A stretch of DNA of 64,000 nt from Nannocystis bainbridge (GTDB taxonomy: Bacteria > Myxococcota_A > Polyangia > Nannocystales > Nannocystaceae): contig NZ_JAQNDL010000002.1 of NCBI RefSeq assembly GCF_028368995.1, positions 545,724 through 609,723 of the forward strand, written 5' to 3'. The translations under genes were made by a program, and so were the position numbers. Shown piece by piece: positions 19,701 to 53,629 of the stretch. The first letter of the stretch is position 1; every line of letters starts with the position of its first letter. The notes beneath the pieces were generated by a model. That model worked only from the letters and a program-made list of their open reading frames with translations. It did not search any database and was not told where the DNA came from.

Positions 19701-22700
19701 GGCCTCGATCTGGCGCCCGAGGTCCTCGTCGTCGGGCCGCAGCTTGTAGGCGCGCTGCAGGTAGCCGATCGCGCGCGCGGGGTCGCCGAGGCGCTCGCGG
19801 GCGATCTCGGCGGCCGAGATCAGCAGGGTGATGGTGCCGAAGTCGCCGTAGTTGGGGGTCTTCTCCTGGAAGGCCAGCTCCTGCTCGCTGACGTCGAGCA
19901 TCTGCGGCCACAGGCCGTGGGCCTGGGCCAGACCCTCGAGGCGAGCTTGCACGGCGCCGGCGTCGAGGCCGGCGCGCAGGGCCACGAAGTAGGCCTTGCG
20001 GCCCCAGGCGAAGGCGAGGTCGGGGTCGCCGATCTTCTTCTCGGCGGTGGCGGAGGCGCCGAGGCACAGGTCGATCTGGCCGCGGCTCTCGGCGCGCGCG
20101 CTCATCTCGGTGAAGCGCTCGCCGTAGACGACGAGCAGGTCCTTGTACATGCCGTGGCGCTCGGCGAACGCCTCGATCTTGGTCTTGAGGTCGCGGCTGC
20201 CGGGGGCGATGCCGAGGGCCCGCCCGAGCAGCGCGAGCGCCCGCTTGGCGTGGCCGAGCCCGAACTCGCACACCTCGGCCATCTGCTCGAGGGTGACGAC
20301 CTGCTGGGCGGCGTCGGTGAGGCTCTCGAGCCGCTTGCCGAGAGTGTCGAGGGTGGCCTGGTGATCGCCGGCCAGCGCCTGCAGCTCGCCGAGGACCTTG
20401 AGGCCCTCGCCGTCGTCGGGCTCCTCGCGCATGAACCGCTGGAACGCGGCGGTGGCCTTGTGCGGGGCGCCGAGGTTGACGACGTAGGTGCGGGCGATCA
20501 GCGAGAACAGCTCGCGCCGCTCCTCGGTCTCGAGCGCCGACAGCAGCAGCACCTCGGCGTGGCGGATCAGGCGGTCGAACTGGCCGGCGCGCTCGTACAG
20601 CTCGAGCAGCTTGAGGGCGACGTCGCGGTTGCCGATGGCGGTGGTCGACGCGAGCTGCTCGAGCACGCGGATGGCGGCGGCCGGGTTGTCGAGCCGGTCG
20701 GCCAGCACCTCGGCGCGCTCCCAGCCGATGCCGAGCGCCTCCTCGTCGCTGTCGGCCATCTCCTGCAGGGTGCCGAGCGAGGCGGCCAGACCGTGCCAGC
20801 TGCCGAGGTTGCGGTAGAGGCGGGTCAGCGCCTCGGTCGCGCCGCGGTGGTCGCGGTGGATCCGGAGCGCGCGCTCGAAGGCCGAGCAGGCCAGGTCGGC
20901 GTCGCCGAGCGACGACTCGGCGACGTGGCCCAGGCGCATGAGGTAGTCGAGCTGGCGGATCGGCGGGGTGCGGGCCGAACTGGCGGCCTTGCCGAGCAAG
21001 TTGGCCAGCTCCTCGCGGTTGCCGAGCGCCTCGTAGGCGGCGATCAGCTTGTCGGTGACCTCGAGGTTGTGCGGGTCGCCGGCCTGCAGCTGCGTCCACG
21101 CCTGGGCCGAGCGCTGCGGGTCCTGCAGCTTGCGGTCGGCGACGTCGGCCATGCGGCGGATGATGCGGGTCCGCTGGGCCGGCTCGCCGACCAGGCCGAG
21201 CTCGCGCGACAGGGCTTCGTGCTCGCCGCCGGCGTCACCGAGCTCGGCCGACAGGCCCTGCATGCGGTGCACGGCGTCGATGTCGGAGGGGCTGTAGCCG
21301 AGGATCTGCTCGCAGGCCCACAGCGCTTCGCGCGGGCTGTGCAGCTCGTGCTGCCACAGCTCGGCCATGCGCCGCAGCAGGACCACGCGCTGCGAGATGC
21401 TGCGGGTGACGTCGTGCTGGCGCCGCAGCAGGTCGATGACCTGGTCGTAAGCACCTGTCCTCTCGTACATCTCGGCGAGCGCGCGCAGGGCCCCCTCGTG
21501 GCCGGGCGCGAGCGCCAGCATCTCCTGCAGCAGGACGATGGTGCGCTGCGGGTCGGTCATGCGCTCGCGGTGGGCCTGCGACAGCCGGCGCAGGACCTCG
21601 AAGCGGCGCTGCGGATCGACGGTGCGCTGCAGCTCGGCCTCGAGGGTGGCGAGGTTGGCGTCGAGCATGCGCGCGCGCTTGTCGATGCGCGCGATCTGGT
21701 CGCGCGGGCGCCAGTCGTTGGGGTAGGCGAGAGCGAGCCGGTTCCAGGCGTCGAGGGCCCCGGCGAGGTCGCCGAGGCGGCGCTCGTAGATCTCGGCGAG
21801 CTCGACGAAGTGCTCGGCGAACTCGCTGCGCGCCAGCGGGCTGTCGGCGCCGCCGCCCATCTGCAGCGCTTGATCGACCTGGTAGAGGATGAGGCCGGCC
21901 AGGTGCGACCAGTTGTTCTTGCGCCGCCAGTGCTCCTTGTAGCCCTCGAACGCCTCGTGGTTGAAGGGCTCGCGCTCGAGCACGCGGTAGAAGCTGACGG
22001 CGGCCCGCTCCTCGTCGCCGAGGTCCTCGCGGGCGACGCGGGCGGCCCACAGCAGCTTGTCGGTCGGCAGGCCGCCAGGGTCCTGCTCGGACCAGCGCTC
22101 GTAGAGGCCGACGAGGCCGTGGTTGTCGCCGAGCTCGACGAGCAGCGCCTCGAGCCGCAACCACGCGTCGCCGCCAGGCCGCTCGAGCCGCGAGGCCTGC
22201 TCGTAGCAGGCGCGCGCCTCTTCGCGACGGGCGAGGCGAGTCTCGAGCAGCTCGCCGCGCGAGAGCCACAGGCCGTAGCTGTCGGCCTCGGTGACGTAGC
22301 CGATCCACGCCCCGTAGAGGTCGTCGAGCTCCATCCACTTCTCCTGCGCCATCAGCAGCTCGGCCAGCGCGTTGCCGGCCTCGTGGTGATCGGGGCGCAG
22401 GCTCATGGCCCGACGCAGGAGGCTGTAGGCGATCTTTTCGTCGCCCTGGCTGCGCGCCAGCTTGGCGGCGCGGAAGAACACGTCGGCGGCCTTTTGCAGG
22501 CCCTCGTCGCTGGCCTTGCCGCTGCCGAGGTAGAGGGCGCCGAAGGCCCGCAGGGCGGCGACGTCGTCAGGGTTGGCCTTGAGCGCGGCCTGGAGGTGGA
22601 GGGCCGCGGAGGGGATGTTCTCGAGCTGCTCGGCCTCGATGCGGGCGAGCCGGAGATGGAGGGAGGCGAAGCGGTCGCGCTCGCGGACGCTGTCGGTGCG

Positions 22701-23372
22701 CGCGAGCTCGACGTTGATCAGATCGATGACGCGCAGCCAGGCGCCGGCCTGGAGATGGAGGCGAATGAGCTGGTCGCTGGCGTCGCGCTCGCCATGGTTG
22801 ATCTCGAGCGCGGCTCTGTAGCAAGCGATCGCCTCGTCGACCTGGCACCGCTGCTCGTCGACCTTGCCGAGCTCGACGAGCGCGCCCGGGACGGCGGCGC
22901 GATCGTGCCGCCGCAGATGATCGAGGCGAAACTTGAGGAGGGTGGCGAGCTCGTCGAGGCTGCCGAGCTCGCCGTAGACCTTGCGCAACTGCTCGTAGGC
23001 GCGGTTGTTGTGCGGCTCGGCCTGGAGGGCGCGCACGAGGGCGTAGGCGGCCTGGGCCTTGTCCTTGACGCGGTCGTTCCACAGCTCGAAGGCCTGGACA
23101 CAGAGCTCGGCGACCTTGGGCGGGCCAGTGATGGCGGCGGCGTGGACGACGAGCAGGGTGGCGAGGCCGCTCCAGTTCTCGGCCTCGCGGAAGGCCCGCC
23201 GCAGCTTCAAGAAGGCGTCGTCGCTGGGCTTGGCGCGAAACGCCGTCAGCTCGGGCGGCTCTCCAGGAGCCACCGGCGGCAACGGGCAAGGCAGATCGTG
23301 AGGCGAGGGCTGGCGCTTGGGCGCGACGGCAGTTTCGGGCATGGGCTTGGTGCCGCGAGCGGGGCCGCCCAA
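13725..23372 (-). CDS. giant tetratricopeptide-repeat (TPR) protein, 3215 aa, with central Pro-rich linker
   Basis: One uninterrupted ORF, Leu/Ala/Glu/Arg-rich, with dozens of TPR-like units (LADLYEQTGQPERAEEQYRGVLAVSP and similar) and a PRPAAKPRGPTPPRPPGGKPLAKAPPPTRRPAAPPPPSRPPEP segment. The + ORF 13608..23417 is its antisense shadow. Confidence 0.85.
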   Translation of the reverse strand: MGGPARGTKPMPETAVAPKRQPSPHDLPCPLPPVAPGEPPELTAFRAKPSDDAFLKLRRAFREAENWSGLATLLVVHAAAITGPPKVAELCVQAFELWNDRVKDKAQAAYALVRALQAEPHNNRAYEQLRKVYGELGSLDELATLLKFRLDHLRRHDRAAVPGALVELGKVDEQRCQVDEAIACYRAALEINHGERDASDQLIRLHLQAGAWLRVIDLINVELARTDSVRERDRFASLHLRLARIEAEQLENIPSAALHLQAALKANPDDVAALRAFGALYLGSGKASDEGLQKAADVFFRAAKLARSQGDEKIAYSLLRRAMSLRPDHHEAGNALAELLMAQEKWMELDDLYGAWIGYVTEADSYGLWLSRGELLETRLARREEARACYEQASRLERPGGDAWLRLEALLVELGDNHGLVGLYERWSEQDPGGLPTDKLLWAARVAREDLGDEERAAVSFYRVLEREPFNHEAFEGYKEHWRRKNNWSHLAGLILYQVDQALQMGGGADSPLARSEFAEHFVELAEIYERRLGDLAGALDAWNRLALAYPNDWRPRDQIARIDKRARMLDANLATLEAELQRTVDPQRRFEVLRRLSQAHRERMTDPQRTIVLLQEMLALAPGHEGALRALAEMYERTGAYDQVIDLLRRQHDVTRSISQRVVLLRRMAELWQHELHSPREALWACEQILGYSPSDIDAVHRMQGLSAELGDAGGEHEALSRELGLVGEPAQRTRIIRRMADVADRKLQDPQRSAQAWTQLQAGDPHNLEVTDKLIAAYEALGNREELANLLGKAASSARTPPIRQLDYLMRLGHVAESSLGDADLACSAFERALRIHRDHRGATEALTRLYRNLGSWHGLAASLGTLQEMADSDEEALGIGWERAEVLADRLDNPAAAIRVLEQLASTTAIGNRDVALKLLELYERAGQFDRLIRHAEVLLLSALETEERRELFSLIARTYVVNLGAPHKATAAFQRFMREEPDDGEGLKVLGELQALAGDHQATLDTLGKRLESLTDAAQQVVTLEQMAEVCEFGLGHAKRALALLGRALGIAPGSRDLKTKIEAFAERHGMYKDLLVVYGERFTEMSARAESRGQIDLCLGASATAEKKIGDPDLAFAWGRKAYFVALRAGLDAGAVQARLEGLAQAHGLWPQMLDVSEQELAFQEKTPNYGDFGTITLLISAAEIARERLGDPARAIGYLQRAYKLRPDDEDLGRQIEALGEQHQMWQALVDLQEAKLARARTGLGRFDACAAIAKIYERHLHDPKRAFQWLRRAETDLRPADPSLAEEAAGLMTELAQRHQLWPELADHHRGLALAKLQRNERGGLNQLKDSARIDYEKRQDPLASLRTLRLGVAYDRDGTALMPAIEAMAAKVDENKSPDTPPTGALTLLSVTQQIIGQTVDPALKLQLLKRRAELRAGLGDTAGAIAEWLRALALHPGHEEARFELDRLAERDNLWHLLLLAPASELHFGTGKAQQGKLLTQIAELYENCLGRPEYALRARIAAWKLQGDLPPETGELGPAHAKMWHLAGLTGTYTSPPQARDPLLWPQIAPPELADRDQWRKLGLDPDTLAPRMAVKARKKEESSVMELDDLEELSRPTAEIQLSELEPLEELRRGGGKEVVARPGKTFRSETHTNIVDLADLEPVELSATAIKVRAPRPSRGETDIVDIAELEPLEASGSVSVRAAGLPRQESGVFDLADFEPIEDSLVGPAPKRPSAEVSGVLDLDEMLELDDDAPRPVSHKRSLPRPAAKPRGPTPPRPPGGKPLAKAPPPTRRPAAPPPPSRPPEPVPAASLPPPPPVASRELIDAVTAGLPALPELEAPVVPVRPAASSAWHELAHAYASVVPASKSERAGLQRLLARLWDEGAGRPDAALERYEEALALVPDDAAALTGLVHMAERTADPERLIAALSRLLSDLTLPEHIVAYHSRLADLYEQTGQPERAEEQYRGVLAVSPKHLGALRSLAALHAKTGREREAAEASARLYDVEADGLPLAERIPRVLQLARDLAYRADRSLEAIRRLEALVKETPETADVHAELIEILQREGLWVRAVEALRTAAEVVPNPDARVRCLARAATLTEERLGQLDAAIAGWSEVLDHNPGDPDALARLQSLYLRSEQYAKLLPILDRRLAQVGPGDRDARIALLVVKARALQEGQGDETAALETLETLAAEAPENDDVVLGLSRLYRKGGRMDDGIEMLRRRLAEIVSDMEVRNEPLAEEPLPFDIPEPVSPALAARRVRIAEALATALAEEAGDPRGALETLDEALADAPPEAALGLQQRRVALARALGDDRALTVSLAAVGEPDGILEAAAIARDRLHEPELAAQLFTRVLAELAPGAPQRSRRLSQAIEGLVGLRLAAGDLDGADALLDAQLAQIDDPEIRARILTESGRALLRGGQEFARARQRFEAALAADPDHAPARLALGAALIDAGLHAEAEATLEAAVEAFGLTRDQPRLVEGLLMLARLFEQTDRANEAYRRLSMALRHVPDDLEIRAGMAHNRAAAGRYRDAVAALEPVEQRLAAGTPVAPERASVVADLLILAAECDAKQNAPTDRLAARYARALELAPRHRKARAALAQLAQESGRLVDAADHTLALADLEQDPEARGRALLAAGMLFHEAAGAAAESGEETVVSASAQKILGAAFEAVQAGLALIQHIPHPVLDRRQLEAAFWTAVTRNAGIALGCLDRLLHHPDLRDAKRVGFLLEGVKIALQRGEPGDPARALAYARAAAPLLPDAAAPIHGLVDALRATGAVDEIEPAVRAYLARESVQKPPGDPREARDRQRLLVRLADLVVQAEPSPDPKDSRPAQAIRLLERAAELDPTGLGLAPRRQLAKLYADEKIQGPQVRTNSDALLHLDPLDEASLAALARHCAEAGEEHRAHAIHQLLRIVSPGHAEAGAFLTSHELLSVRGGKLDPATVVEPAPADAGVVPAMTALWEGAAELLAEELPRPQFNEAAWIEAETDKDTLLWKVWTELGTQMAAQGVRLADVGLLPEMHVEGGWTSVSCVHSPVILVGPAARAETTAPRLRFALGRALFFTRPAAILVAGLPRPLFAGVLAAALQAFHPRHTRRVRTRDEADLATRLGQTLARKLPIRLARQLSGQFKEREQEGFDSRDWRAWVQRSGDRVGLCLSRNLGAALDILGLPQEPGERSAALKARAAHDADLRDLLVFAVSPAYVGARRALGFEVKSR

Positions 23373-27800: not shown

Positions 27801-27902
27801 GAGGTGCGGCGGGAGTGATGGAGGAGGGGGCGGGAGCGGGGGAGCGGCGGCGGGGACGATGCCCGCGGGCGTGTCGGCGGTGGGCGGAGCGTCGGGGGCT
27901 GC

Positions 27903-28060
27903 GCTGTCGGACATGTCTTCGGGGACATGTTCGGAGGGGCCGGTGGGTGTGGTGGTCGTTTCGGACATGTCTTCGGGGACATGTACGGAAGGACCGGTCG
28001 GTGCGGCGGACTTGGCGGACATGTCTGGGGAGACATGTGCGGAGGGACCGGTGGGCTGCC
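27903..28060 (+). repeat. ~54-bp tandem repeat x3, each unit carrying a double hairpin GGACATGTCTTCGGGGACATGTWCGG
   Basis: tcggacatgtcttcggggacatgttcgg... / tcggacatgtcttcggggacatgtacgg... / ggacatgtctggggagacatgtgcgg. It lies between the divergent PAP2 gene (-) and the gene starting near 28370 (+). Confidence 0.85.
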
Positions 28061-28369
28061 AGGCGCCGAGTGACTCGCGAGTCGGGGCCAGCGCGGTCCG
28101 GGCGGGGACGAGCGGGTGGGCGGCGGCCGGCGAGGCGGTCAAGACCACGAGCAGGGCGGAGAGCAGGCGGCGCGGCATCGCGGGTCGGCCGAGTATGCCC
28201 GGTCGCGGCGGGACCGGGCAGCCGCGAGATGGTCTTCGGGACAGGTGAACCCATGCGGTCCGCGGCGAGGAGTGGCGGCTCGGGGGATTCGCGGGCGAAG
28301 CACGATGTTTGCGTCGATCGCGCGCGGCTGGCGGCGGGCGCACGCGTCGCGGTAGATTGCGTCTCTGGC

Positions 28370-29689
28370 ATGCAGACCGAGACGTACGCGGAGCTCGAGG
28401 CACGGTTGACGACGGCGGTTGCGAGCGCGGCGGGCGGGGACGCGGCGGCGGCGGAGCGGCTGGCGGACGAGCTGGAGGCGCTGGCGAAGGCGCCTCCGTG
28501 CCGCGAGGGCTGGCCGCGGCCGGGCAGCGTGGCGTACATGACGTTCGACGCGTTCCTCAAGGTCGAGGGAGCAGGCCGGGCGCCGCTGGAGCGGCTCGCG
28601 GGGCCGTTTTTGCGGGCGATCGCGGCCCACCCGGAGACGCTGGGGGTGCCGCATCGGTTCGCGCCGGCGACGATGCTCGGGCCGTCGGCGATCCCGCTGC
28701 TGCTGGCGCTGCTGGACCGCGGGCTGCGATCGACGTCGCGGGCGACGATCGAGGCGCTCGGCGAGTACAACCCGGGTAACGAGGTGGGGTTCAAGCTGGC
28801 GAGCGAAGCGGTGGCACGATTGCTGGCGTACACCGACGGTGAGGCGGTCGCGGCGGGGTTGCTGGGGCTCGAATGGAACGACGAGCGCATGTGGCTGCTG
28901 TTCCGGGTGCTGACGGAGGCGAACGCGCTGCGGCCGGGCGAGGTCGAGCCGGGGGCCGCGGCGGCGCTGCGGGGGCTGGTGGCAGGGACGGCGACGATCT
29001 CGGGCTCGGGGGCGGACCGGCTGCGGGCGCTGCTGCTGCGGGCGAAGATCATCCCGAAGTCGATGGCGCCGGCGATCCGTCTGGCGACGCTGCCGAAGCA
29101 GCTGCCGCAGACGGTGGCGGAGGCGCTGGCGCTGATGGGCACGTGGGGGCTGTCGGCGGCCGACGTGGAGGCGAAGGGTCCGGCGAGGCCGCGCGAGATC
29201 GAGGCGCTGGCGAAGCAGGTGAAGCCGCGGCTGCCGAAGGCGCTGACGCAATTGCTGGGCACGCACGCGAAGCTCGGCAACCGCGACCTCGGGCCGCCGG
29301 CGCGCATGCGGGCGCTGATCGGGGAATTGGCGGAGATGCTCGAGGAGCACGAGGAAGACGCGGACGAGGCCGAAATGGGCCGCGGGCAATACGACGTGCG
29401 TGGCTTCGATCCGGGGAAGAAGGCGATCCCGCTCGGTACCGATCCGTCCGGCGACCTGTTCTTCCTGGCGACGGGGGCGAAGTCGGCGGCCGGGACGGCG
29501 CCGGTGATCCGCTTTCGCCACGACCAGACGCTGGTGGGGACGATCGCGGCCGACTCGCTCGGCGAGTACGTGGCGCTGATCCTCGCCCGCGCGTACGCCC
29601 GCCGCGAGGGCCTGGAGTCGCAGCTGGACAGGCTCGAGGGGCGCAAGCGGACGATCGTGTCAGGGTACAAGCCGCCGAAGCGGGCGTGA
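28370..29689 (+). CDS. hypothetical protein (possible SMI1/KNR4-like C-terminal region)
   Basis: Natural composition from MQTETYAELEARL onward. The upstream part of ORF 27815.. is translated repeat DNA (TCLRGHV...). Alternative starts lie at 28229 and 28253. C-terminus reads GFDPGKKAIPLGTDPSGDLFFLATG. Confidence 0.55.
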   Translation: MQTETYAELEARLTTAVASAAGGDAAAAERLADELEALAKAPPCREGWPRPGSVAYMTFDAFLKVEGAGRAPLERLAGPFLRAIAAHPETLGVPHRFAPATMLGPSAIPLLLALLDRGLRSTSRATIEALGEYNPGNEVGFKLASEAVARLLAYTDGEAVAAGLLGLEWNDERMWLLFRVLTEANALRPGEVEPGAAAALRGLVAGTATISGSGADRLRALLLRAKIIPKSMAPAIRLATLPKQLPQTVAEALALMGTWGLSAADVEAKGPARPREIEALAKQVKPRLPKALTQLLGTHAKLGNRDLGPPARMRALIGELAEMLEEHEEDADEAEMGRGQYDVRGFDPGKKAIPLGTDPSGDLFFLATGAKSAAGTAPVIRFRHDQTLVGTIAADSLGEYVALILARAYARREGLESQLDRLEGRKRTIVSGYKPPKRA

Positions 29690-31959: not shown

Positions 31960-32240
31960 TGTCGGAGTCACTGGCGAACGTGATGGAGCAGGGCCTCGCG
32001 GCGCGAGGATGACGACGCCCGCGGACGGCCCGTTGCGTGGAGTTCACGGCGAACTGGTGGAGAAACCGGCGAGGGCGTCAGAGTCGTGGCTCGAGCCGCG
32101 GCTGCGATGATGACCACGCCGCAGACGACGGGCGTGGGGCCCAGGGCGAGCTCGGGAGAAACCGGCGAGGGCGACGGATTCGCGGCTCGAGCTGCGGCTG
32201 CGATGACGACGACTCCGCAGACGACGGGCGTGGCCCAGGT
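31960..32240 (+). repeat. ~97-bp tandem direct repeat (about 2.5 copies) in the intergenic region upstream of the LysM gene
   Basis: gagaaaccggcgagggcgtcagagtcgtggctcgagccgcggctgcgatgatgaccacgccgcagacgacgggcgtgg is repeated with minor changes. ORF 32037..32297 is its translation artefact. Confidence 0.8.
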
Positions 32241-32487: not shown

Positions 32488-33123
32488 ATGCCGAAGCAGC
32501 GCAAGGTCGAGCCGGGAGATTGCCTGTCCAGCATCGCCTATGAGCACGGCTTCTTCAGCGCGACGGTGTGGAACGCGGGCGCCAACGCGGGGCTGCGGAG
32601 CGCGCGGCGGGAGCCCAACTTGCTGGTGCCCGGCGACGTGGTGGTGATCCCCGATCGGCGTGACAAGGGCGTCGGGTGCCCGACCGATCAGCGGACCCTG
32701 TTTCGGCGCCGCGGCGTGCCGGCCCGGCTCAACCTGGGGTTCGTCGAGGACGAGGAGCCGTGCGCGGACACGCCGTACGTGCTGCTGGTCGACGGGGCGC
32801 GCTTCGAGGGGGTGACCGACGGGGAGGGCCGGCTGTCGGTGCCGATCTCGCCGGCGGCCCGGCAGGCGCGGGTGATCCTCGGCGTCGGGCCGGAGGCCGT
32901 CGAGTACACGTTCAACCTCGGCCGGCTGCTGCCGCCCGATCAGGACGACGGCGTGCGCGCGCGGCTCGAGAACTTCGGCCACTCGTGCGGCGGCGAGACC
33001 GGGCCGCTCGGGCCGCAGACGGCGGCGGCGCTGCGCAACTTCCAGGTCGAGCAGGGGCTGGCGCCGAGCGGGATCGTCGACGACGAGACGCGCGCGCGGC
33101 TGTCGGCGCACCATGGCTCTTAG
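32488..33123 (+). CDS. LysM domain plus peptidoglycan-binding (PGBD_1) domain protein
   Basis: LysM: VEPGDCLSSIAYEHGFFSATVWNAGANAGLRSARREPNLLVPGDVVVIP. PGBD: GPLGPQTAAALRNFQVEQGLAPSGIVDDETRARL. It ends 12 bp before the next gene. Confidence 0.8.
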   Translation: MPKQRKVEPGDCLSSIAYEHGFFSATVWNAGANAGLRSARREPNLLVPGDVVVIPDRRDKGVGCPTDQRTLFRRRGVPARLNLGFVEDEEPCADTPYVLLVDGARFEGVTDGEGRLSVPISPAARQARVILGVGPEAVEYTFNLGRLLPPDQDDGVRARLENFGHSCGGETGPLGPQTAAALRNFQVEQGLAPSGIVDDETRARLSAHHGS

Positions 33124-33135
33124 GACAGGTGACAC

Positions 33136-36100
33136 ATGACGCGGTGGGTCGACACGATCGATAAGCGTGAGGTCCCGCGCCAGACCGCTGGCCGGCTGAC
33201 CTGGAGCGACCTCGACGATCTGCGCACGCCCGGACGGGCGCTGTCGGAGGACCTCGTGGCCTACGCGGTCGAGGATTTCTTGGGGGTCAAGCAGGATCGC
33301 GTGACGTGGGTCCGGCCGATCCTTCCGGTGCCGGACGGCGCGCTCGACGTCGACGATCACGCTGCGCCGCGGCTGACCTGTCGCGTGCTTTGCCACGGTC
33401 ACTACAGCTTGCTGGTGCTCGATCGCCACACGGGCGAATTGCTGCACCTCGATACGGCCAACCGGAATCACAACAACGCCCAGGCCGAGGCGCTGGTCGG
33501 CGGTGGGGGGCGGATCACGCACGCGGCGTGGGTGCCGAAGCAGCAGTCGGGGAGCAACAATTGCGGGCCGATGGTGGCGCTGATGCTGGCGGCGATCGCC
33601 GGGACCGACGGCGCGCCCGCCAACGTCCGCCGGGCGATCACGGGCGGGGTCTCCAACGACGCGGCGGAGCGGCTGCGCCGGGCGCTGCTCGATCACTTCA
33701 AGCCGATGTTCGTCGAGGACGACGAGGACGACGACGGCGCGCTCGAGGATGAGGCGCGGGGCGAGGCGCCGCGCGAGAGCTCCGGTGAGCCGCCGCCGGT
33801 GCTGTTGGACGAGGCGCCGGGCGAGATCGTCGACGACGTCGCGGAGGAGGACGAGCCGGGTGAGCCGCCGCCGGTGCTGTTGGACGATGCGCCGGACGAG
33901 ATCGTCGACGACGTCGCGGAGGAGGACGAGCCGGGTGAGCCGGTCGCCGAGGAGATCGACGTGGTGGTCGCGCGCGCGCCGTGGCTGCCGCCGGCGATCG
34001 ACTACGCGGGGTTCGTCGATCTGCGGCCGGTGCCGCCAGTGCCCGAGTCGTCGAACGTGCACGACGTGCCGCGCAGCGAGCACGCGGCGGAGGTCCGCTC
34101 GACGCACGCGCGCTCGCGCCTGCAGCTGGAGGCGCTCTACCTCGAGGACGCGGACGGGCAGCGCTCGCGGGCGTACCGCTACCCCGCCGACGTCGATCAC
34201 GCCGCGCCGGCGGAGGATCAGCGGTTCGCGTTCCGGGTCGACGATCCGGCGCCGCAGTCGATCCGCTGGCGGATCCGTCACGCGAAGCCGCTGCGGCGCG
34301 GGGTGCTCGAGCTGTTCGTGGCCGGTCGCGCCGAGCCGGTGTGGTCGCGCGCGCTGTCGGCGGAGGAGCTCCGAACCTCGCCCGGGGGCGAGCGCAGCGA
34401 CGGCAGCACGGTCGAGGGCGGGCTCGCGTGGACGGGCAGCTTCGCCGGCGGGGCGCCGGCAGACGGCCGGGTCCGCGCCGGCGAATCGCCGTACAAGCTC
34501 AAGCTGACGATCTTCAGCAAGACCGGCGCGGTGGTGGCGAAGCGGCAGGCGTGGACGTACTTCGACGTCCCGTATCAACACAAGTACGCGCTGCTGAGCT
34601 ACGTGCCGAGCACCGAGTTCGGCTGCTTCGGCGTCCGCTTCGATCCGGCGCGGGCGCGGCTCGACGTGTTCATCGACGCGATGTTCGCGTTCCTGCCGGT
34701 GACGCCGGTCGAGGCGGCGTGGGATCCGGGTCGCAAGGCGGAGATCGTCGCCAATTATCCGCGACGGATCCACGCCGACTGGAGCGGGCACTACGATCTG
34801 AGCTGCGACGGGGTCCGGGCCGCGCCGGTCATCGTCTTGAGCGGGCGGCACGTCCAGGACCTGCCCGCGATGGAGGGCACGGACAACCCGCTCAGCGTCG
34901 AACCGGCGCTGGTGCGCCGCATGGACCGGGACTCGCTCCACTTCTTCGCGTGGTTCCGCGACGGGATCGGGCGCTCGGGGCTGATGCTCCACCCGCTCAG
35001 CGCGAGCGTGAATCTGTTCGCGCCCTCGGCCTTCGACGAGGATCAAGCGAGCATGATGCTCAGCAGTCCGACGATCCGCGAGGACCTGCAACGGGCGCAG
35101 CGGAGCGTGCTCGAAGCGCTGCGCGAGGACGCGGGCTTCGCCGCGACCGGGGCTCGCATCGAGGTGCTCGATGAAGGCAGGCCCGACGCGCGGCCGCGGA
35201 TCGTGCTGCCGTTCGCGTCCAGGGTCGAGGAGCTCGATCCGGCGACGCACCGGGTCGCGCTCGACCGCCTGGTGACGGTGCTCAACGCGATCCGCGGCGA
35301 GCTCAACACCGACGTGCCGGTGTTCGTGACCGGCTGCATGAAGCGGAGCGAGCGCAGCAAGCTGCTGCGGCGACAGCACCACGACCGGGAGCGCGCGGCG
35401 CACGTGTCGGCGTACTTGCGCCGCGAGGGCGGGCTGGCGGCGCCAGCGTACCCCGAGGGGGCGACGGCGCGGCAGATGGTCGCGGGGCGCGGCTACGTGG
35501 TGCAGGCGAAGGACGGTCAGATCCGCGAGCAGGGCGGCGTCGAGATCGAGATCGGTTACACCGACGACGCCGAGTACTCGCAGGTGATGGTCGGGCGGAC
35601 GGCCTACTGCGCGCTCGTCCACGAATTCGGGCACATGCTGGGGATCCCCGACGAGTACATGACGTACGAGTTCGACACGTCGACCTGCAGCATCGCTTCG
35701 AGCCAGCCGCGGCTGCGGGAGATGTGCCTCGACAAGGGGATCGCGGCGCCGGAGTTCCCCCGCGAGGGCGCGAACCTGTTCCACGCGGCGTTGATGTCGG
35801 CGGGGGTGCGGTTCTACGAGCGCTACTACCTGACGATCGCCGAGGCGGTGGAGAAGGCGACGACGCTGGCGATGGGGGCGCCGCGGCGGTGGGACATCGG
35901 CGCGAACGAGACGGTGGCCGAGGCGACCGACGAGGCGTTTCACCAGCGGTACGACCATTTCGGGTTGATCGAGGCGCTGCACAGGGCGCGGCGGGCGGTG
36001 CAGCGGCACGAGGTGGCGCCGGTGCGGCTCCTGGCGTCGATCCGGCGGAAGATCCTGCGGACCGTCGCGGGGGCCAGGATCGCGTATCTGCGGGTGGTCA

Positions 36101-38478
36101 GCCGCGACACGCTGGCGCCGGTCCATCGCGTGGGGCCGGTGCGGGTGCTGATCGGGGTCGGTGTGTTCGACGGCGACGAGGTGCTGCACGCCAGCATCCA
36201 CGCGCGCCAGTGGCCGCTCACCTGCACCATCGCGCTGCCGCTGGGGACGCAGGTCGTGGAGGGGGTACACTTGCCCGCGACGGGCGACGGTCGCGTGCCA
36301 GTGACGCTGCGGTCGCGCTGGGCGTTCGAGGGGACCGGCGTGTTCACCTGCTCGACGCTGCGGGTGCGGTTCTTCGCGACCGCCGACGGCGATGCGCCGC
36401 TCGACGTGTTCGCCGGCCACACGCTGCGCGGGCGCGACCTCGGCAGCGCCGAGGGCGTGGTGCTGTACATGGAGGGCGAGCCCCAGGGGGCGGAGTTGGG
36501 GCTGCAGCTACGCTCCGACACGCACCTCTTGAGCCCCGACGTGGCCCGCGTCGAGCTCGGGAGCACGCGCGCCGCGCTCGACGTGTACGCGCCGGTCCAC
36601 GAGCCGCCGGCGGTGCCGCAGCCGCTGTCGGCCGCCGATCGGCTCGCTCCCGGCGCCGTCGTGCTGCTCGATCACGAGGACGCGCGTCGACCCCGGACCC
36701 TCGTCACCGTGCATCGCCCGCACGGGGCCACGCGGCGGCTGCGGCTGCGGCTGCGGGGCGGCAAGGTCGATCTGTTCGCGGCCGAGCGGGCCACGCCGGG
36801 CGAGGCGAAGCTGGGGGCCGAGCGGCGGCGCGGCGACGATGTCGCGTGGGAGTACGTGATCCCCGACGAGCGCTTCGACGCCAGGGGCCGCGCGTCGTTC
36901 TGGCTGGCCGGCGCGGCGGTCAGCGGGGCCGCCCGCGACGCCAGCGTGGAGCTGCGCTGGGAGGGCAAGCAGCTCGAGCTGGCCAGCGCGAGGCTGACGG
37001 TGGTGGACGTGACGCTGACGGCCACGGTGCCGGCGACGCGGGCCCGCACCGAGCGAACGGTCTCGCTGCGGCCGGTGACGGTGGGCGCGAATCAATTGCT
37101 GATCGCCCGCGACGGTGAGCGGCGGCGGGCGACCACCGACGATCAGGTGTTCGACGCGGCGCGGATGGGCGCGTCGCGGCTGGCGAAGATCCGGGCGACG
37201 CATCCGTACGCCACGACGGACTTCGACAAGAACCCGCCGCTGGTGCTGATCCGCGGGTCGCTCGGGGACTCGCAGGTCCGCGTCGATCTGGCGATCGCGC
37301 CGGCCGAGCTGGCGCCGGCCGTCGCGTGGGACATCGCGCGCGCGGCCGACGACACCATCGACGAGGCGCCGCCGGTGCTCAACCCGGGGGGCCTGCGCTG
37401 TACGTTCGGCGACGGGGCGACCGGTTCGTTCCACGTGCGGGCGCTGCTCGGCGGACGACCGCTGGCGGTCCTCAACCTCGTGATGGTGGCTGCGACGCTG
37501 CAGCCCGACGGCGACGGCGAGGACGAGCGGTCGCGGGCGGGGGTGGAGATAGCCCGACCGCACGAGATCGACGGGGATTCGATCGACAACGCGATGGCCC
37601 GCGAGTTTGGGCAGCCGCAGATCGTGCGGATCAAGAGCGGTGACTTCGGGGCCCAGCCGTGCGTGCGCCTGCGCGGCAAGGTGCGCCTGATCAGCGGCGG
37701 GCCGAGGGGGCGTCGCGGCCTCGATCAGGTGGCGGCAGGGTGGGTGCAGAACTTGACCCACGTGCTGGTGCGCTCGCGCTACGAGGGCGGGCGGCAGATC
37801 GAGCTGGGCCACGTGCACAACAAGGAGGGCGCGTCGATCCTGCGCCCGTTCATGCCCGGCGCCGACGCAGGGGACAGCTACTTCGTCGGCGCCGACGTCG
37901 CTATCGCGCTCGAGCAGGACGTCGGGGTCGACACGCCGATCCTGGACACGGGCCTCATGGGCCAGGGCGGCGCCGACTCGGTGCTGGGGAACAGCAAGTT
38001 CGAGGAGGTCTGGAACGCCCACGGGTTGGAGCTCCGGGTCGAGGCGCTCGACGCCCCGGCGACCGAGTTCTTCGTCCACTACCCGGGCCAGCCAGAGGCG
38101 CTGCTGACCCGGATCCGCTACGAGCACGACTTCCGCGCCTATCTGTGCGTGTGGACCAATTGCATCGGGGCGGCGGCGTCGAACAAGACCGAGTTCCGCG
38201 CGGCCAGCTACGCCGCCGACCGCTGCGTGGCGGTGCTCCGCCGCGTCGACTGGTCGCTGAAAGGACGCTGGCGGGTCCGCTGGGAGGGGCTCGTCGAGGG
38301 CGAGATCGCCGGGCCGGGCTGGGCGACGAAGATCCGGATCGAGCCGCTCGCGCCGGAGGACGAGCTGCGGGCGGTGCTGGACGCCACGATCGATGAAGCG
38401 AGGCCGGCGCGCGACGCGGGGGTCGAGCTGTACTACCCGACCGAGCTGCAGGTGTTCGCCTGGCAGGGCAGCGAGTGA
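33136..38478 (+). CDS. 1780-aa multidomain protein: N-terminal Ulp1/C48-like cysteine protease, acidic 28-aa tandem repeat, internal snapalysin-like HExxHxxGxxD metzincin motif
   Basis: HYSLLVLDRHTGELLHLDTAN aligns to the Ulp1 motif HWxLxvIDxxxxxIxYxDS. VPKQQSGSNNCGPMV aligns to QQxNGxDCG, giving His-Asp-Gln-Cys order. Repeat EDEPGEPPPVLLDEAPGEIVDDVAE x2. ALVHEFGHMLGIPDEY matches HExxHxxGxxD. There is no signal peptide. Confidence 0.8.
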   Translation: MTRWVDTIDKREVPRQTAGRLTWSDLDDLRTPGRALSEDLVAYAVEDFLGVKQDRVTWVRPILPVPDGALDVDDHAAPRLTCRVLCHGHYSLLVLDRHTGELLHLDTANRNHNNAQAEALVGGGGRITHAAWVPKQQSGSNNCGPMVALMLAAIAGTDGAPANVRRAITGGVSNDAAERLRRALLDHFKPMFVEDDEDDDGALEDEARGEAPRESSGEPPPVLLDEAPGEIVDDVAEEDEPGEPPPVLLDDAPDEIVDDVAEEDEPGEPVAEEIDVVVARAPWLPPAIDYAGFVDLRPVPPVPESSNVHDVPRSEHAAEVRSTHARSRLQLEALYLEDADGQRSRAYRYPADVDHAAPAEDQRFAFRVDDPAPQSIRWRIRHAKPLRRGVLELFVAGRAEPVWSRALSAEELRTSPGGERSDGSTVEGGLAWTGSFAGGAPADGRVRAGESPYKLKLTIFSKTGAVVAKRQAWTYFDVPYQHKYALLSYVPSTEFGCFGVRFDPARARLDVFIDAMFAFLPVTPVEAAWDPGRKAEIVANYPRRIHADWSGHYDLSCDGVRAAPVIVLSGRHVQDLPAMEGTDNPLSVEPALVRRMDRDSLHFFAWFRDGIGRSGLMLHPLSASVNLFAPSAFDEDQASMMLSSPTIREDLQRAQRSVLEALREDAGFAATGARIEVLDEGRPDARPRIVLPFASRVEELDPATHRVALDRLVTVLNAIRGELNTDVPVFVTGCMKRSERSKLLRRQHHDRERAAHVSAYLRREGGLAAPAYPEGATARQMVAGRGYVVQAKDGQIREQGGVEIEIGYTDDAEYSQVMVGRTAYCALVHEFGHMLGIPDEYMTYEFDTSTCSIASSQPRLREMCLDKGIAAPEFPREGANLFHAALMSAGVRFYERYYLTIAEAVEKATTLAMGAPRRWDIGANETVAEATDEAFHQRYDHFGLIEALHRARRAVQRHEVAPVRLLASIRRKILRTVAGARIAYLRVVSRDTLAPVHRVGPVRVLIGVGVFDGDEVLHASIHARQWPLTCTIALPLGTQVVEGVHLPATGDGRVPVTLRSRWAFEGTGVFTCSTLRVRFFATADGDAPLDVFAGHTLRGRDLGSAEGVVLYMEGEPQGAELGLQLRSDTHLLSPDVARVELGSTRAALDVYAPVHEPPAVPQPLSAADRLAPGAVVLLDHEDARRPRTLVTVHRPHGATRRLRLRLRGGKVDLFAAERATPGEAKLGAERRRGDDVAWEYVIPDERFDARGRASFWLAGAAVSGAARDASVELRWEGKQLELASARLTVVDVTLTATVPATRARTERTVSLRPVTVGANQLLIARDGERRRATTDDQVFDAARMGASRLAKIRATHPYATTDFDKNPPLVLIRGSLGDSQVRVDLAIAPAELAPAVAWDIARAADDTIDEAPPVLNPGGLRCTFGDGATGSFHVRALLGGRPLAVLNLVMVAATLQPDGDGEDERSRAGVEIARPHEIDGDSIDNAMAREFGQPQIVRIKSGDFGAQPCVRLRGKVRLISGGPRGRRGLDQVAAGWVQNLTHVLVRSRYEGGRQIELGHVHNKEGASILRPFMPGADAGDSYFVGADVAIALEQDVGVDTPILDTGLMGQGGADSVLGNSKFEEVWNAHGLELRVEALDAPATEFFVHYPGQPEALLTRIRYEHDFRAYLCVWTNCIGAAASNKTEFRAASYAADRCVAVLRRVDWSLKGRWRVRWEGLVEGEIAGPGWATKIRIEPLAPEDELRAVLDATIDEARPARDAGVELYYPTELQVFAWQGSE

Positions 38479-39469: not shown

Positions 39470-41317
39470 TCACGGCGCGGGCACGGGCTCGGCCCCGAGG
39501 TCGCGGGCGAGGTCGGCGAGCTCGCCGATGGGGACCTGCAGGGCGGGCAGGCGGGTGATGTCGGTCCGCGCGGCCTGGGCGATGGTCTCGCTGGCGCGCA
39601 TGACGAGGCCGCCGTGGGGATCGGCGACCACGGTGTAGCCGGCCTTGCGCAGGCGGGTGAGGCGAGCCTGGGCCGAGGGCGAGAGGTCGGTGGCGGTGAT
39701 GCGCAGGGAGGGCACGCGGCCGGGCCAGATGGCGGCGAGGTAGGCGGTGATCCGCGGGGGGTAGACGACGCCGCCGGCTGTCTTTTCGTTCAGGTGAACG
39801 TCGACCAGAGCGGGGTAGCCGCTGACGTCGCAGCGCACGGCGCCGTGGAGGTGGCTGGTCCACATGGCCTCGGGGCTGACAGGCGCGGGCCACAGGCCGT
39901 CGAACCACGCGGCGATGGCGTCGTAGCTGGGCAGGCGCTGGCCGCCGAGGGCGTCGCCGAGGCGCTGGACCTCGGCGCCGAACCGCTCGCCGCGCTCCTC
40001 ACGACGCAGGCGCAGGAAGATCGCAAGCACGGCGATCGCCGCGGCGAGGTACCACAGGCCGAACAGCAGCAGGCCGCCGCAGACGATGGCGACGAACAGC
40101 AGGCCGAGGCCGCCGCCCTGGACCTGCTGCTGGCGCCGCTCGTCGGCGTGGCGGGCCAGGAGGGCGCGGCGGGCCACGGCGAGGGCGCTGGCGGGGATCC
40201 GCCCCTCGGGCTCGGGTTCGGCGGCGTCGGGCCGGTCGGGGAGGATCGAGCGGACGGCGGCGAAGAGGGCGTGGGTGGCGACGGCGGGCTGGCCGTCGGC
40301 AGGCTCGCGCACGGCGGCGACGAGCAGCGGGGCCTCGGCCAGGCCGCCGGGCGGAGGGGCGAGCGCCGCGGTCTGGGCGGGCGCGCTCTGGCTGGCGCCA
40401 GGGCGGTTGTAGAGGATGGAGAGCAGCGAGGAGTTCGAGGGGTTGATCGCGGCGCCGGGGAGGGTGTCGCTGGCGCTGGTGCGAGCGGTCGGGTCGCGCG
40501 CGAGGCTGGCCCCGAAGACAGGTGCGTCGGCGGGCGCGGGCAGCGGGCCGGACAGGACGGCGGGGTCGAGGCGGGCGGCGGGATCGGGATCGGTGTCGGG
40601 GCCGGAGATGTCCGCAGGGACAGGTGGGGGCGGGAGGCCGGCGGGCAGGGTCTGCGCGGCGATGGGGATGTCCGCGGGGACAGGTTGGATGTCCGCGGGG
40701 ACAGGTGAGATGTCCACGAGGACAGGTGAATACGAGCTGTCTGCGGGGACATGTGAGATGTCCGCGGGGACATGTGAGATGTCCTCGGGGACAGGTGCGT
40801 CGGCGGCAGCACGTTCGCGGACGGCGTGCTCGGCGGCGGCGGGCCGGGGGCCGGGCGGGCGGCCGGGGCGTGAGCCGGGCTGGACGGCGGCGGCCGGGCC
40901 CTGCAGGGTGTCGCCGGGGTGGGGCGGGGCTTCGCCGGCGAGGTCGATGTCCTTGAGGACAGGTCGCACCGGGGCGGGGTCGGCAGGGGCGGGGGCGGGG
41001 CCGATCGAGAGCAGGGTGGTCGGCGGGACGGGCGCGGCGAGCAGGCTGGCGGCGAGCCCGGGCTGGTGGCGCACGCGGACCGGCGCGGCGAACTCGAGGT
41101 CGGGATCAGGGCTGTCTTTGGGGACAGGTGACCCCTGGACCAGGTCGCGCACGGCCTGCTGGATGGCCCGCTCGTAGAGGGCGAGGGCGTCGGCGACGGC
41201 CGGCGGCAGCCCATGCGATCGAGCGCACGCGGGGCAGTCAGCGGCGCCGCGGATGTCGTCGAGCGAGAGCGCGTGCTGACAGTGCGGGCAGCGCAACGCG
41301 AGGGTCGGAGAGAGCAC
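39470..41317 (-). CDS. zinc-ribbon / Pro-rich linker / single-TM / C-terminal domain protein
   Basis: CPHCQHALSLDDIRGAADCPACARSH (CxxC...CxxC), TM LGLLFVAIVCGGLLLFGLWYLAAAIAVLAIF. The linker contains PEDISHVPADISHVPADSSY, encoded by the hairpin repeats at 40600-40810. Confidence 0.65.
   Translation of the reverse strand: MLSPTLALRCPHCQHALSLDDIRGAADCPACARSHGLPPAVADALALYERAIQQAVRDLVQGSPVPKDSPDPDLEFAAPVRVRHQPGLAASLLAAPVPPTTLLSIGPAPAPADPAPVRPVLKDIDLAGEAPPHPGDTLQGPAAAVQPGSRPGRPPGPRPAAAEHAVRERAAADAPVPEDISHVPADISHVPADSSYSPVLVDISPVPADIQPVPADIPIAAQTLPAGLPPPPVPADISGPDTDPDPAARLDPAVLSGPLPAPADAPVFGASLARDPTARTSASDTLPGAAINPSNSSLLSILYNRPGASQSAPAQTAALAPPPGGLAEAPLLVAAVREPADGQPAVATHALFAAVRSILPDRPDAAEPEPEGRIPASALAVARRALLARHADERRQQQVQGGGLGLLFVAIVCGGLLLFGLWYLAAAIAVLAIFLRLRREERGERFGAEVQRLGDALGGQRLPSYDAIAAWFDGLWPAPVSPEAMWTSHLHGAVRCDVSGYPALVDVHLNEKTAGGVVYPPRITAYLAAIWPGRVPSLRITATDLSPSAQARLTRLRKAGYTVVADPHGGLVMRASETIAQAARTDITRLPALQVPIGELADLARDLGAEPVPAP
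40600..40810 (+). repeat. tandem hairpin units GAGATGTCC-NCGGG-GACAKGT (~19 bp, about 8 copies) embedded in frame in a coding linker
   Basis: ggatgtccgcggggacaggtgagatgtccacgaggacaggtgaa...ggggacatgtgagatgtccgcggggacatgtgagatgtcctcggggacaggtg. Confidence 0.85.
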
Positions 41318-52612: not shown

Positions 52613-53339
52613 GCGCGCCCGTCGAGGACGCCGGCGCGCCGTCGATGCGATGGCGCGCGGCGCTGCGGGGTGTCGCTCGCCCCGCGCTGAGCCGCACGAG
52701 GGATCGTTCCGGTTCACGCGGGCTGCGAACTCAAGGCGGTGTCGAGGCCGGCCCACAACTGTACGGCGCGCGGCGAGGGCAGGCCGAGCGCGACGAGCTT
52801 TGCCTGCTCCGATGCTTCGGCGGCGGTCCGCCGCACGGTAGCGACCGCGAGCCGGCCGGTGAAGTCGAGCTGTCCGATGAGCCAGGCGTCGAACATTCGC
52901 GGGCGAGCTCGCAGATCAGCGCATTCCGTAAACGACACTGCCGGTGGTGCTGCCGCCGGCAGACACGGAATCACCAGAGTCTGTGGTCGTGGCGCCCATG
53001 ACGGTGGAATCCATGGTGCCCGAATCGGTGGAGGTGCTCGTGTTCGCGGTGGGGGAATCCGTGGTGTCGAATCGGTAGAGGTGCTCGTCCGGGGCAGGCG
53101 TGCGCGCGGAAGCCCGAGGGCACCCGACCTCGATTCGTCGCGCAAGCGAGCTGCCAGGGCAAGTCCGAGCAAAAAATCGTGACGAGCATGGCGAGAGCAT
53201 GGCCGCGCGGAGCGGGCTGTCAGGTTGCCGGGAAGGGTCGGGTAAGGGCGCCGGTGAGCCCTCGCCAGGGTCGCGGAGAATGAGGGCTCGGATCCGCTGC
53301 GCTGGTCTTCGCAGACAAATCGGATTATCGTGCGAGGCG

Positions 53340-53516
53340 ATGGCATTTCCGACCGCAGTCAACGCTCAGATCACCGACGAACTCGTTCAGACGGCCCTCC
53401 GCGCGGGCGTCGAGCAAGACACCGCCCGCAAAGTCGTCGAGTCGATCCTCGATCACCTGGCGAGCCGGGACGTCCTGCTCAGGGAAGGCAGCCCCACGCC
53501 TCAGGCCGCGGATTAG
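53340..53516 (+). CDS. possible small protein (58 aa)
   Basis: MAFPTAVNAQITDELVQTALRAGVEQDTARKVVESILDHLASRDVLL lies 115 bp upstream of the secreted-protein gene. Support is weak. Confidence 0.25.
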   Translation: MAFPTAVNAQITDELVQTALRAGVEQDTARKVVESILDHLASRDVLLREGSPTPQAAD

Positions 53517-53629
53517 CGCATGAAGGCGCCGAGCAGGCGCGAGCGACCGAACGCCCGGCCTGCGGGCCGGGCGGTCCTGAGCGCGGATGGACCAGCCGCG
53601 GCCGACGCGGGCGTGATAGAGGTGAGAAA

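Follow-up and report, generated by a model that had tools for sequence, protein, structure and literature searches.

The closest described counterparts of the gene pair examined here are the LysM/PG_binding_1 co-effectors of type VI secretion systems (T6SSs), such as Kalk_10460 of Ketobacter alkanivorans (Commun Biol 2023, PMC10673891). In a survey of 130,825 vgrG loci, LysM and PG_binding_1 were among six domain families found there, which occur as separate genes or fused to VgrG or to toxins, and pull-down experiments showed that LysM proteins are required for VgrG-toxin binding, bridging VgrG and the downstream toxin (PMC10673891, 2023). Here we analyse a 64,000-nt stretch of Nannocystis bainbridge DNA (contig NZ_JAQNDL010000002.1, positions 545,724-609,723 of the forward strand; G+C ~72%), referred to below as the window, in which a gene for a small LysM and PG_binding_1 protein directly precedes a gene for a 1780-aa protein. 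We propose, with a probability of roughly 0.65, that this pair encodes an orphan T6SS cargo effector together with its LysM/PG_binding_1 adaptor or co-effector; in broader terms, the proposal is of an orphan module that supplies cargo to a contractile injection system.

As with the surveyed co-effectors, the small protein stands alone directly upstream of a candidate toxin gene, lacks a signal peptide, and has a full-length homologue right after VgrG on a plasmid of the Chromatiaceae, a family also named in the survey for PG_binding_1. The pair differs from them in that LysM and PG_binding_1 are joined, with a central beta domain, in one protein of 205-255 aa, in that the partner is giant and metzincin-like and not a lysozyme, NlpD or NlpC/P60 toxin, and in that the Nannocystis genes are orphans, for which VgrG binding is proposed by analogy. 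Cargo effectors that depend on DUF4123 proteins (Tap-1/TEC) offer a second likeness: one relative of the large protein, P0014, is encoded in the order VgrG-PAAR-x-DUF4123-effector, and four other relatives have a short DUF4123-like gene before or after them, whereas the window locus has no DUF4123 gene and keeps only the LysM/PG_binding_1 gene. T6SS-delivered zinc peptidases are represented by the C-terminal domain of P. aeruginosa VgrG2b, which acts in the target periplasm (PMC6899460), and by Rhs-M91 of Salmonella Dublin (PMC13556075). We detected no sequence relation between these and the window protein, and they are fused to VgrG or Rhs and accompanied by immunity proteins, whereas the Nannocystis protein would be a separate cargo with a proposed adaptor of its own, and we saw no immunity gene for it.

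A conserved two-gene unit

The two open reading frames (ORFs) lie 12 bp apart at the coordinates given in a preliminary description of the window (Table 1), and the peptides quoted there (HYSLLVLDRHTGELLHLDTAN, VPKQQSGSNNCGPMV and HEFGHMLGIPDEY) are all present. The host is indeed a myxobacterium (Nannocystis bainbridge; Myxococcota, Nannocystaceae), and a hypothetical protein of this species has the same sequence as the large protein. Both ORFs have strong coding codon-position G+C along their length, the first 285 codons of the large gene included. The spacer holds a Shine-Dalgarno-like AGGTG at 33127-33131, 4 nt ahead of the large-gene ATG, an arrangement that implies probable coupled expression of the two genes, and comparably short gaps (6-29 bp) occur at five orthologous loci. 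A hairpin element had been placed on the start codon of the large gene. We reject it, having found no inverted repeat there and an RNA fold no better than that of shuffled sequences (z +0.35).

At six other loci the small gene lies 6-110 bp upstream of a large-gene relative, and at a seventh it lies two genes downstream (Table 1). The small-protein orthologues at L001, L005, L007, L008, L009 and L014 match over their full length at 30-56% identity, as does the one at L016, and those beside large-gene relatives measure 205-216 aa.

The small protein consists of a LysM-like region (aa ~4-58), a central beta domain, PG_binding_1 (PF01471; aa ~151-208) and a conserved HGS end. PG_binding_1 was detected at E 8.8e-11 (42.3 bits against a Pfam cut-off of 23), and LysM (PF01476) fell below threshold when the single sequence was used (E 0.058, 13.8 bits against 20.9). 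A profile of seven orthologues (A2), searched against solved structures, matched LysM structures at aa 4-58 (4uz2, E 4e-4; SafA; MltD) and PG_binding_1 structures (4xxt, E 4e-6; SleB), and gave a weak match to a phage tail-tube-initiator LysM protein. By these profile matches the small protein is a LysM and PG_binding_1 protein, as had been predicted, and we propose that it acts as an adaptor or co-effector. PHROGs endolysin matches of the small protein come only from PG_binding_1, and a phage lysis module was rejected because no phage genes surround the pair.

Five loci carry a further accessory family, whose members measure 154-283 aa and contain one or two beta repeats of ~60 aa that weakly resemble CarboxypepD_reg/MG domains (L001 8563-9360, L007 267-731, L008 15041-15664, L009 8683-9294 and L015 15641-16492); it is absent from the Nannocystis window. 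On an Eleftheria terrae plasmid (NZ_CP106953.1; L018 14986-18425), a small-protein homologue overlaps by 4 bp the gene for a 924-aa hypothetical protein with neither domain A (described below) nor an HExxH motif. The LysM/PG_binding_1 family may serve other cargo types too.

The large protein belongs to a rare family

We scanned aa 1-1200 of the large protein with HMMER against 1.84 billion representatives and recovered 56 proteins, among them eight full-length relatives (P0002-P0009; 1403-1569 aa, 25-36% identity) that all start at query residue ~286. Judged from these matches, residues 286-1780 constitute a rare, unannotated family scattered across phyla, including the non-sporulating Rhodothermota, Gemmatimonadota and Hydrogenedentota. 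No Pfam domain was found in any of the relatives scanned (P0002-P0005, P0007 and P0009), and neither the family nor the toxin unit described below is covered by any Pfam or NCBIfam model. Other searches added little. A word-indexed protein search with the whole large protein returned only the protein itself, one with the family alignment A1 only P0001, P0003 and the distant P0057, and one with the C-terminal alignment A3 nothing; this index seems saturated for compositionally biased sequences, and it was the full HMMER scan that found the family. A genome-contig scan with the single large protein, tblastn of the family core (aa 286-1780) against plasmids, and searches of PADLOC and PHROGs with the large protein gave no match, and a metagenome scan gave one extra, short locus only.

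The family core begins with a domain of about 195 residues, here called domain A. It also forms the N-terminus of P0014, P0017, P0018, P0021, P0023, P0031, P0032 and P0044; P0021 aside, these are giants that share domain A, and some of them also the C-terminal part, around a different centre. The C-terminal ~800 aa are all-beta, and the most conserved part is a C-terminal region of ~350 aa. A profile search within the retrieved set found this part in P0012, P0014, P0017, P0023 and P0054 as well, and together with domain A it is the conserved chassis of the family. In an AlphaFold2 (AF2) model, the C-terminal array has a predicted local distance difference test (pLDDT) score mostly of 80-96, and a fold search with it matched only generic immunoglobulin (Ig)-like arrays (invasin, PrgB, PAD N-terminal domains and macroglobulin domains). 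Fold searches with a 1200-aa model returned only OmpA and generic Ig-like folds, the multidomain query being swamped and its top lists holding no zincin; neither this model nor the C-terminal half matched a zincin, T6SS, phage-baseplate or pore-forming fold. We propose that domain A is a loading or adaptor-binding domain.

Between the two parts of the chassis lies a unit that also occurs by itself. Stand-alone proteins of ~360-510 aa match stretches 210-300 and 400-610 of the family profile (search within the retrieved set), and on this basis we define a peptidase unit at aa ~490-905. It contains an OmpA-fold domain just before the zinc helix: the family profile matched the OmpA-like structures PA0833-PD (E 2.3e-5) and YfiB in the PDB, and Pfam OmpA was above cut-off in the relatives P0056 and P0045.

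A zinc site with aspartate as third ligand

The zinc motif of the peptidase unit, HExxHxxGxxD, is conserved in the relatives. In a 49-sequence alignment (A4), the columns hold His829 in 42/44, Glu830 in 44/44, His833 in 42/43, Gly836 in 40/45 and Asp839 in 43/46, and the three exceptions in the Asp839 column (P0014, P0017 and P0023) carry His, the canonical ligand. The domain-A giants P0014, P0017, P0018, P0023, P0031, P0032 and P0044 carry the canonical HExxHxxxxxH. Downstream, Met887 is conserved in 39/47 and Gly890 in 43/47 (consensus S-[IL]-M-S-x-G), and a helix is predicted after this Met-turn-like motif (RYYLT...; model residues 315-333, aa 895-913). There is thus good comparative evidence that HExxHxxGxxD is a conserved metzincin-type zinc site with Asp as third ligand, and the reading as an Asp variant holds because relatives carry His exactly at the Asp839 column. 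The features that point to a metzincin, namely the conserved HExxHxxGxx[H/D] and a Met-turn followed by a helix, were seen in the sequence and in predicted secondary structure.

The preliminary description had called this part of the protein snapalysin-like. The motif with its Asp third ligand stands and is common to snapalysin, a small (~130 aa) secreted enzyme of family M7. Membership of M7 was rejected, given the absence of an M7 profile match and a wholly different architecture: the window protein did not match Peptidase_M7 (PF02031) even at E<=10 on isolated segments, and the PDB profile match to snapalysin covered 16 residues only, at E 0.14. One relative gave a sub-threshold M7 match (E 0.0045), the window protein gave a sub-threshold Pfam M6 match over ~22 residues (E 0.019 / 0.0016), and the relatives show scattered weak matches to M6, M7, M10, M12B and M91. 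With metzincins of families M6, M10 and M12 the unit shares a conserved Met ~48 residues after the motif followed by a helix, and its HExxHxxxxxH relatives align column for column; it is unlike metzincins in having an OmpA fold before the zinc helix and in being embedded in a 1780-aa protein that has no signal peptide or propeptide.

The same features bear on where the pair might work. The preliminary description envisaged a cell-wall-associated dual-protease system of the cell itself, in which the LysM/PG_binding_1 protein tethers an Ulp1-like and snapalysin-like protease for envelope remodelling, for example in myxospore formation or in opening the wall for a machine. Three peptidoglycan-related folds (LysM, PG_binding_1 and OmpA-like) would suit such a role, as would the failure to find an immunity gene. 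We saw, by eye, no N-terminal hydrophobic signal-like stretch in either the small or the large protein, so that neither would reach the periplasm by Sec or Tat, and the stand-alone peptidases likewise have none that we could find. The family occurs in non-sporulating phyla, its members exchange catalytic centres in the manner of polymorphic toxins, its accessory genes are those of effector adaptors (DUF4123-like and DUF1795; see below), and most loci are orphan, outside machinery operons. We therefore regard a self-directed remodelling machine as quite unlikely.

Relatives are linked to contractile injection systems

Genetic linkage to T6SS genes was found for the relatives and for the small-protein family (L015, L009/L012, L006/L010/L017 and a plasmid) and not among the genes scanned in the window. 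The fullest case is a metagenomic island (L015), which reads Rhs, DUF2169, VgrG, PAAR, DUF4123, P0014, FHA/DcrB, VgrG-DUF2345 and PAAR-Rhs; P0014 has domain A and the C-terminal chassis. The island also holds a small-protein homologue (E 7e-31), followed by a 590-aa HExxHxxGxxH protein ending in AHELLHVLGLQHRG. Four loci (L006, L008, L010 and L017) have accessory genes of 125-133 aa that resemble the DUF4123 protein of this island in its C-terminal portion. In Roseithermus, the module lies between a DcrB/DUF1795 gene and a fused TssB-TssC sheath gene with FHA-SLT; DcrB (PF08786) is the DUF1795 Eag chaperone family (PMC4524185). We sought remnants of the two other accessory genes in the window and found none.

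In detail, the Roseithermus sheath gene joins TssB (VipA) and TssC (VipB) in one protein of 635-665 aa and is followed by an FHA-SLT fusion (L009 15507-19094 / L012 15217-18894). Neighbouring genes of 495, 311, 997 and 382 aa have no significant Pfam match, and the region is possibly a T6SS locus of unusual type.

Plasmid pTs485 of Ca. Thiodictyon syntrophicum (RefSeq) encodes PAAR, VgrG, a small-protein homologue, a second PG-binding protein and a 390-aa protein. The VgrG is annotated as 'type VI secretion system tip protein VgrG', the small-protein homologue follows it directly (33% identity, 97% coverage), and the 390-aa protein carries HExxHxxxxxH (AHELGHFFSLWH). T6SS genes have been reported in Nannocystales (PMC10196010).

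Some of the links lead to the extracellular contractile injection system (eCIS), a phage-tail-like particle, and the pair could be cargo of an eCIS instead of a T6SS. The peptidase unit lies C-terminal to eCIS_core (formerly DUF4157, PF13699) in P0043 (E 1.7e-32) and P0030 (E 2.8e-28), and LysM proteins are core eCIS components (PMC10673891). A middle beta module of ~260 aa is common to the Nannocystis protein and a 1361-aa OmpA and PG_binding_1 protein of Yoonia sediminilitoris with a C-terminal HEVGH, which is encoded inside a contractile cluster. The window protein has no eCIS_core domain by Pfam, the window genes that we scanned include none of eCIS type, and the relatives and the small-protein family adjoin the T6SS markers VgrG, PAAR, DUF4123, DUF1795 and TssB/C. 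Loading into an eCIS thus seems very unlikely, the least probable of the readings we weighed.

The Yoonia cluster (L003, QBUD01000010.1, 3951-23917) is of a phage-tail-like or contractile-injection type and lies downstream of a sigma-54 gene. Besides the 1361-aa protein it encodes sheath, tube, a Phage_TAC_7 tail-assembly-chaperone-like protein, gpD, base_V, gp25, Baseplate_J and a 1599-aa protein.

The N-terminal domain is an addition in Nannocystis

Ahead of the family core, the Nannocystis protein carries a domain of 195 residues and an acidic repeat linker that joins it to the core, the relatives beginning after the repeat at aa ~286. The repeat unit is 25 aa (75 bp, 2.1 copies), not 28 aa as first described. 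The N-terminal domain had been called Ulp1-like for a collinear His/Asp/Gln/Cys motif (HYSLLVLDRHTGELLHLDTAN at aa 89-109 and VPKQQSGSNNCGPMV at aa 133-147). The likeness to Ulp1/SENP C48 proteases and bacterial CE effectors (ChlaDub1, XopD, SseL) can be written as HYSLLVLD..LDT..QQSGSNNCG against HWxLxxxD..DS..QQxNxxDCG. Six-frame translations totalling 641,284 aa contain the composite pattern just once, and 2/200,000 shuffles have it; these figures lend weak support because the pattern was written after the site had been seen.

The motif stands, whereas we found no significant sequence, profile or structural similarity to back it. Peptidase_C48 (PF02902) did not match the full-length sequence at E<=1, nor aa 1-210 when the limit was raised to E<=10, and no other Pfam family matched this segment either; a PDB phmmer search at E<=10 with this domain returned only an M23 peptidase and an unrelated protein, and no CE protease. 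Smith-Waterman scores were at chance level against SENP1 (verified sequence; z 1.4) and against an unverified Ulp1 sequence (z 0.3). No homologue of aa 1-285 was found among the 1.84 billion representatives (HMMER) or in the fetched loci, nor did tblastn of the domain match plasmids or phages. The AF2 single-sequence model of aa 1-195 has a pLDDT of 39 and is unusable for a fold search; at this low confidence, its order of strands and helices is compatible with a CE fold and places Cys143 at a helix N-terminus. The Ulp1/C48 assignment, which the collinear motif suggests, is unproven, and we put the chance that aa 1-195 form a clan-CE protease at about even. The domain is absent from every relative, so 'dual protease' does not describe the family.

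This domain is the ground for reading the protein as an anti-eukaryotic effector, delivered by a T6SS or otherwise into fungal or protist prey, where a clan-CE domain would strip ubiquitin-like modifiers or acetylate host proteins, the metallopeptidase would degrade host proteins, and LysM could bind chitin. The rarity of the collinear motif in shuffles (2/200,000), the predicted order of secondary structure with Cys143 at a helix start, and the want of an immunity gene, which is usual for anti-eukaryotic effectors, are consistent with it. Neither HMM searches nor structural or evolutionary comparisons support the CE assignment, however, and a domain that the relatives lack cannot account for conservation of the pair. 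The PG_binding_1 and OmpA-like folds suggest a bacterial wall as the target, and the LysM-linked T6SS toxins reported so far are mostly peptidoglycan hydrolases (PMC10673891). We consider this anti-eukaryotic reading unlikely.

Table 1. Features of the window and spacing of the gene pair at other loci
Feature	Position	Strand	Description
Small gene	32488-33123	+	211 aa; ORF call
Intergenic spacer gacaggtgacac	33124-33135	+	12 nt between small and large gene
Large gene	33136-38478	+	1780 aa; proposed giant cargo effector; ORF call and family relatives
N-terminal add-on	33136-33720	+	aa 1-195; collinear His89/Asp106/Gln136-137/Cys143, motif resembling clan CE (Ulp1-like)
Tandem repeat linker	33784-33942	+	acidic, Pro-rich; 75 bp (25 aa) x 2.1; Tandem Repeats Finder, 97% matches
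Domain A	33991-34575	+	aa ~286-480; N-terminal in every family member and in other giants
Peptidase unit	34603-35850	+	aa ~490-905; N-terminal beta segment, OmpA-fold domain, zinc site, Met-turn-like motif
OmpA-fold domain (PF00691)	35188-35565	+	aa ~685-810, just before zinc helix
Zinc motif HEFGHMLGIPDEY	35620-35658	+	aa 829-841; Asp839 at third ligand position
Met-turn-like motif ALMSAG	35788-35805	+	aa 885-890; Met887
C-terminal region	36076-38475	+	aa ~981-1780; ~800 aa, all-beta, Ig-like/beta-sandwich array
L001 (metagenome-assembled genome, MAG)	small gene 12 bp upstream		small protein also 211 aa, HGS end
L005	small gene 10 bp upstream of relative		
L007	small gene 110 bp upstream of relative		
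L008 (Gemmatimonadaceae MAG)	small gene two genes downstream of relative		
L009/L012 (Roseithermus sacchariphilus, CP030158)	small gene 29 bp upstream of relative		
L014	small gene 6 bp upstream of P0018		P0018: domain-A giant with different centre
L016 (Enhygromyxa salina, same family as Nannocystis)	small gene 9 bp upstream of P0023		P0023: domain-A giant with different centre

Other features of the window

The 565 bp upstream of the small gene show no coding signal in any frame and contain a 96-bp tandem repeat (32059-32233; 1.8 copies, 89-90% identical). The next gene downstream of the pair is a convergent short-chain dehydrogenase (SDR). Strings resembling GGACAGGTGAC (<=2 mismatches) are enriched in the window, with 9 found against 1.5 expected (23408, 28239, 33123, 40699, 40957, 41122, 49370(-), 57619(-) and 61472); their contexts are unrelated and they are not a discrete mobile element. 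Three of them, at 40699-41134, lie within a 615-aa minus-strand ORF (39470-41317) in which GGACAGGT-like strings recur several times, and others sit before start codons with an SD-like AGGTG.

Further away, a 3215-aa ORF at 13725-23372 (-) contains a dense series of TPR repeats, TPR_19 (E 2.5e-40) being one of many matches. At aa 456-586, a 624-aa protein encoded at 27815-29689 (+) matches SMI1_KNR4/SUKH-1 below threshold (E 0.0055); members of that family often serve as polymorphic-toxin immunity. The gene lies ~3 kb upstream of the pair, with TetR and S41 peptidase genes between. A DUF4185 protein is encoded at 53330-55054 (+), 15 kb downstream of the pair, and another on the Eleftheria terrae plasmid (L018 10701-13505), 1.5 kb upstream of the small-protein homologue; this may be coincidence.

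Discussion

The preliminary description had considered an undescribed effector or toxin among its possibilities. That part fits best, and to it we add the T6SS route, which had not been named. Several lines of evidence lead us to the T6SS-cargo reading. The two-gene unit is conserved, relatives are linked to T6SS genes, LysM proteins of vgrG loci are known to bridge VgrG and toxin, and T6SS genes have been reported in Nannocystales. Both proteins of the pair, and the stand-alone peptidases, lack signal peptides despite their peptidoglycan-binding folds. Domain A and the chassis are kept while the centre switches between an Asp-type and a His-type zinc site, a form of polymorphism. Finally, reuse of the peptidase unit behind eCIS_core argues for a cargo role in general.

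According to this model, the cell would synthesize the giant effector in its cytoplasm, as a protein with no signal peptide. Within the family core (aa 286-1780), domain A would serve for loading and be followed by the toxin unit and a long Ig-like tail, the toxin unit being an OmpA fold with a metzincin-like zinc peptidase (His829, Glu830, His833, Asp839 and Met887). The 211-aa protein would bind the effector and dock it on the VgrG spike, as shown by experiment for other vgrG-locus LysM proteins. After firing, the peptidase would act in the envelope of the target cell, its likeliest substrates being peptidoglycan peptides or peptidoglycan-associated proteins; we infer an envelope target because the large protein has an OmpA fold and its partner a PG_binding_1 domain, and because LysM adaptors are reported to be associated with peptidoglycan hydrolase toxins. 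The Nannocystis protein alone would have gained an extra N-terminal domain, attached by the acidic repeat linker, that may be a clan-CE cysteine protease.

A number of observations weigh against the T6SS-cargo reading. Among the window genes that we scanned, none encodes a T6SS core component, VgrG, PAAR or a known adaptor. No cognate immunity gene adjoins the pair in the window, and no downstream gene is conserved across the compared loci that could fill this role. In the relatives, domain A is strictly N-terminal, and the 285 residues that precede it here might hamper loading. OmpA-like domains usually bind peptidoglycan through a TD motif, and that of the window protein lacks the Asp of this motif (judged by eye). 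The family is also rare, with members in 3/185,579 species representatives, so that the evidence from genomic context rests on about a dozen loci.

A more far-reaching reading is that the pair represents an undescribed superfamily of giant effectors of contractile injection systems. Its defining features would be an adaptor of its own that joins LysM to PG_binding_1, a loading domain at the N-terminus, a metzincin-like toxin that is fused to an OmpA domain and can be exchanged, and a long tail of Ig-like domains. In Nannocystis, this scaffold would have captured an orphan clan-CE protease, giving a true dual-protease effector that lacks an immunity gene and is perhaps aimed at eukaryotic as well as bacterial prey. 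We offer this joint reading tentatively and think it possible, at well under even odds.

The partnership of an adaptor with a cargo effector is already well known, and our finding extends the catalogue and leaves the concept unchanged. If the T6SS-cargo reading is true, the compact LysM-PG_binding_1 adaptor would serve as a marker of T6SS effectors in phyla in which their discovery has been poor (Myxococcota, Rhodothermota, Gemmatimonadota and Hydrogenedentota), and the OmpA fold joined to an Asp- or His-type metzincin-like peptidase would be a new toxin unit in both T6SS and eCIS cargo. The N-terminal domain, should it be a real clan-CE protease, would be a rare case of such an enzyme on a T6SS cargo protein. 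For Nannocystis itself, the pair would then be a candidate contact-dependent weapon for myxobacterial predation.

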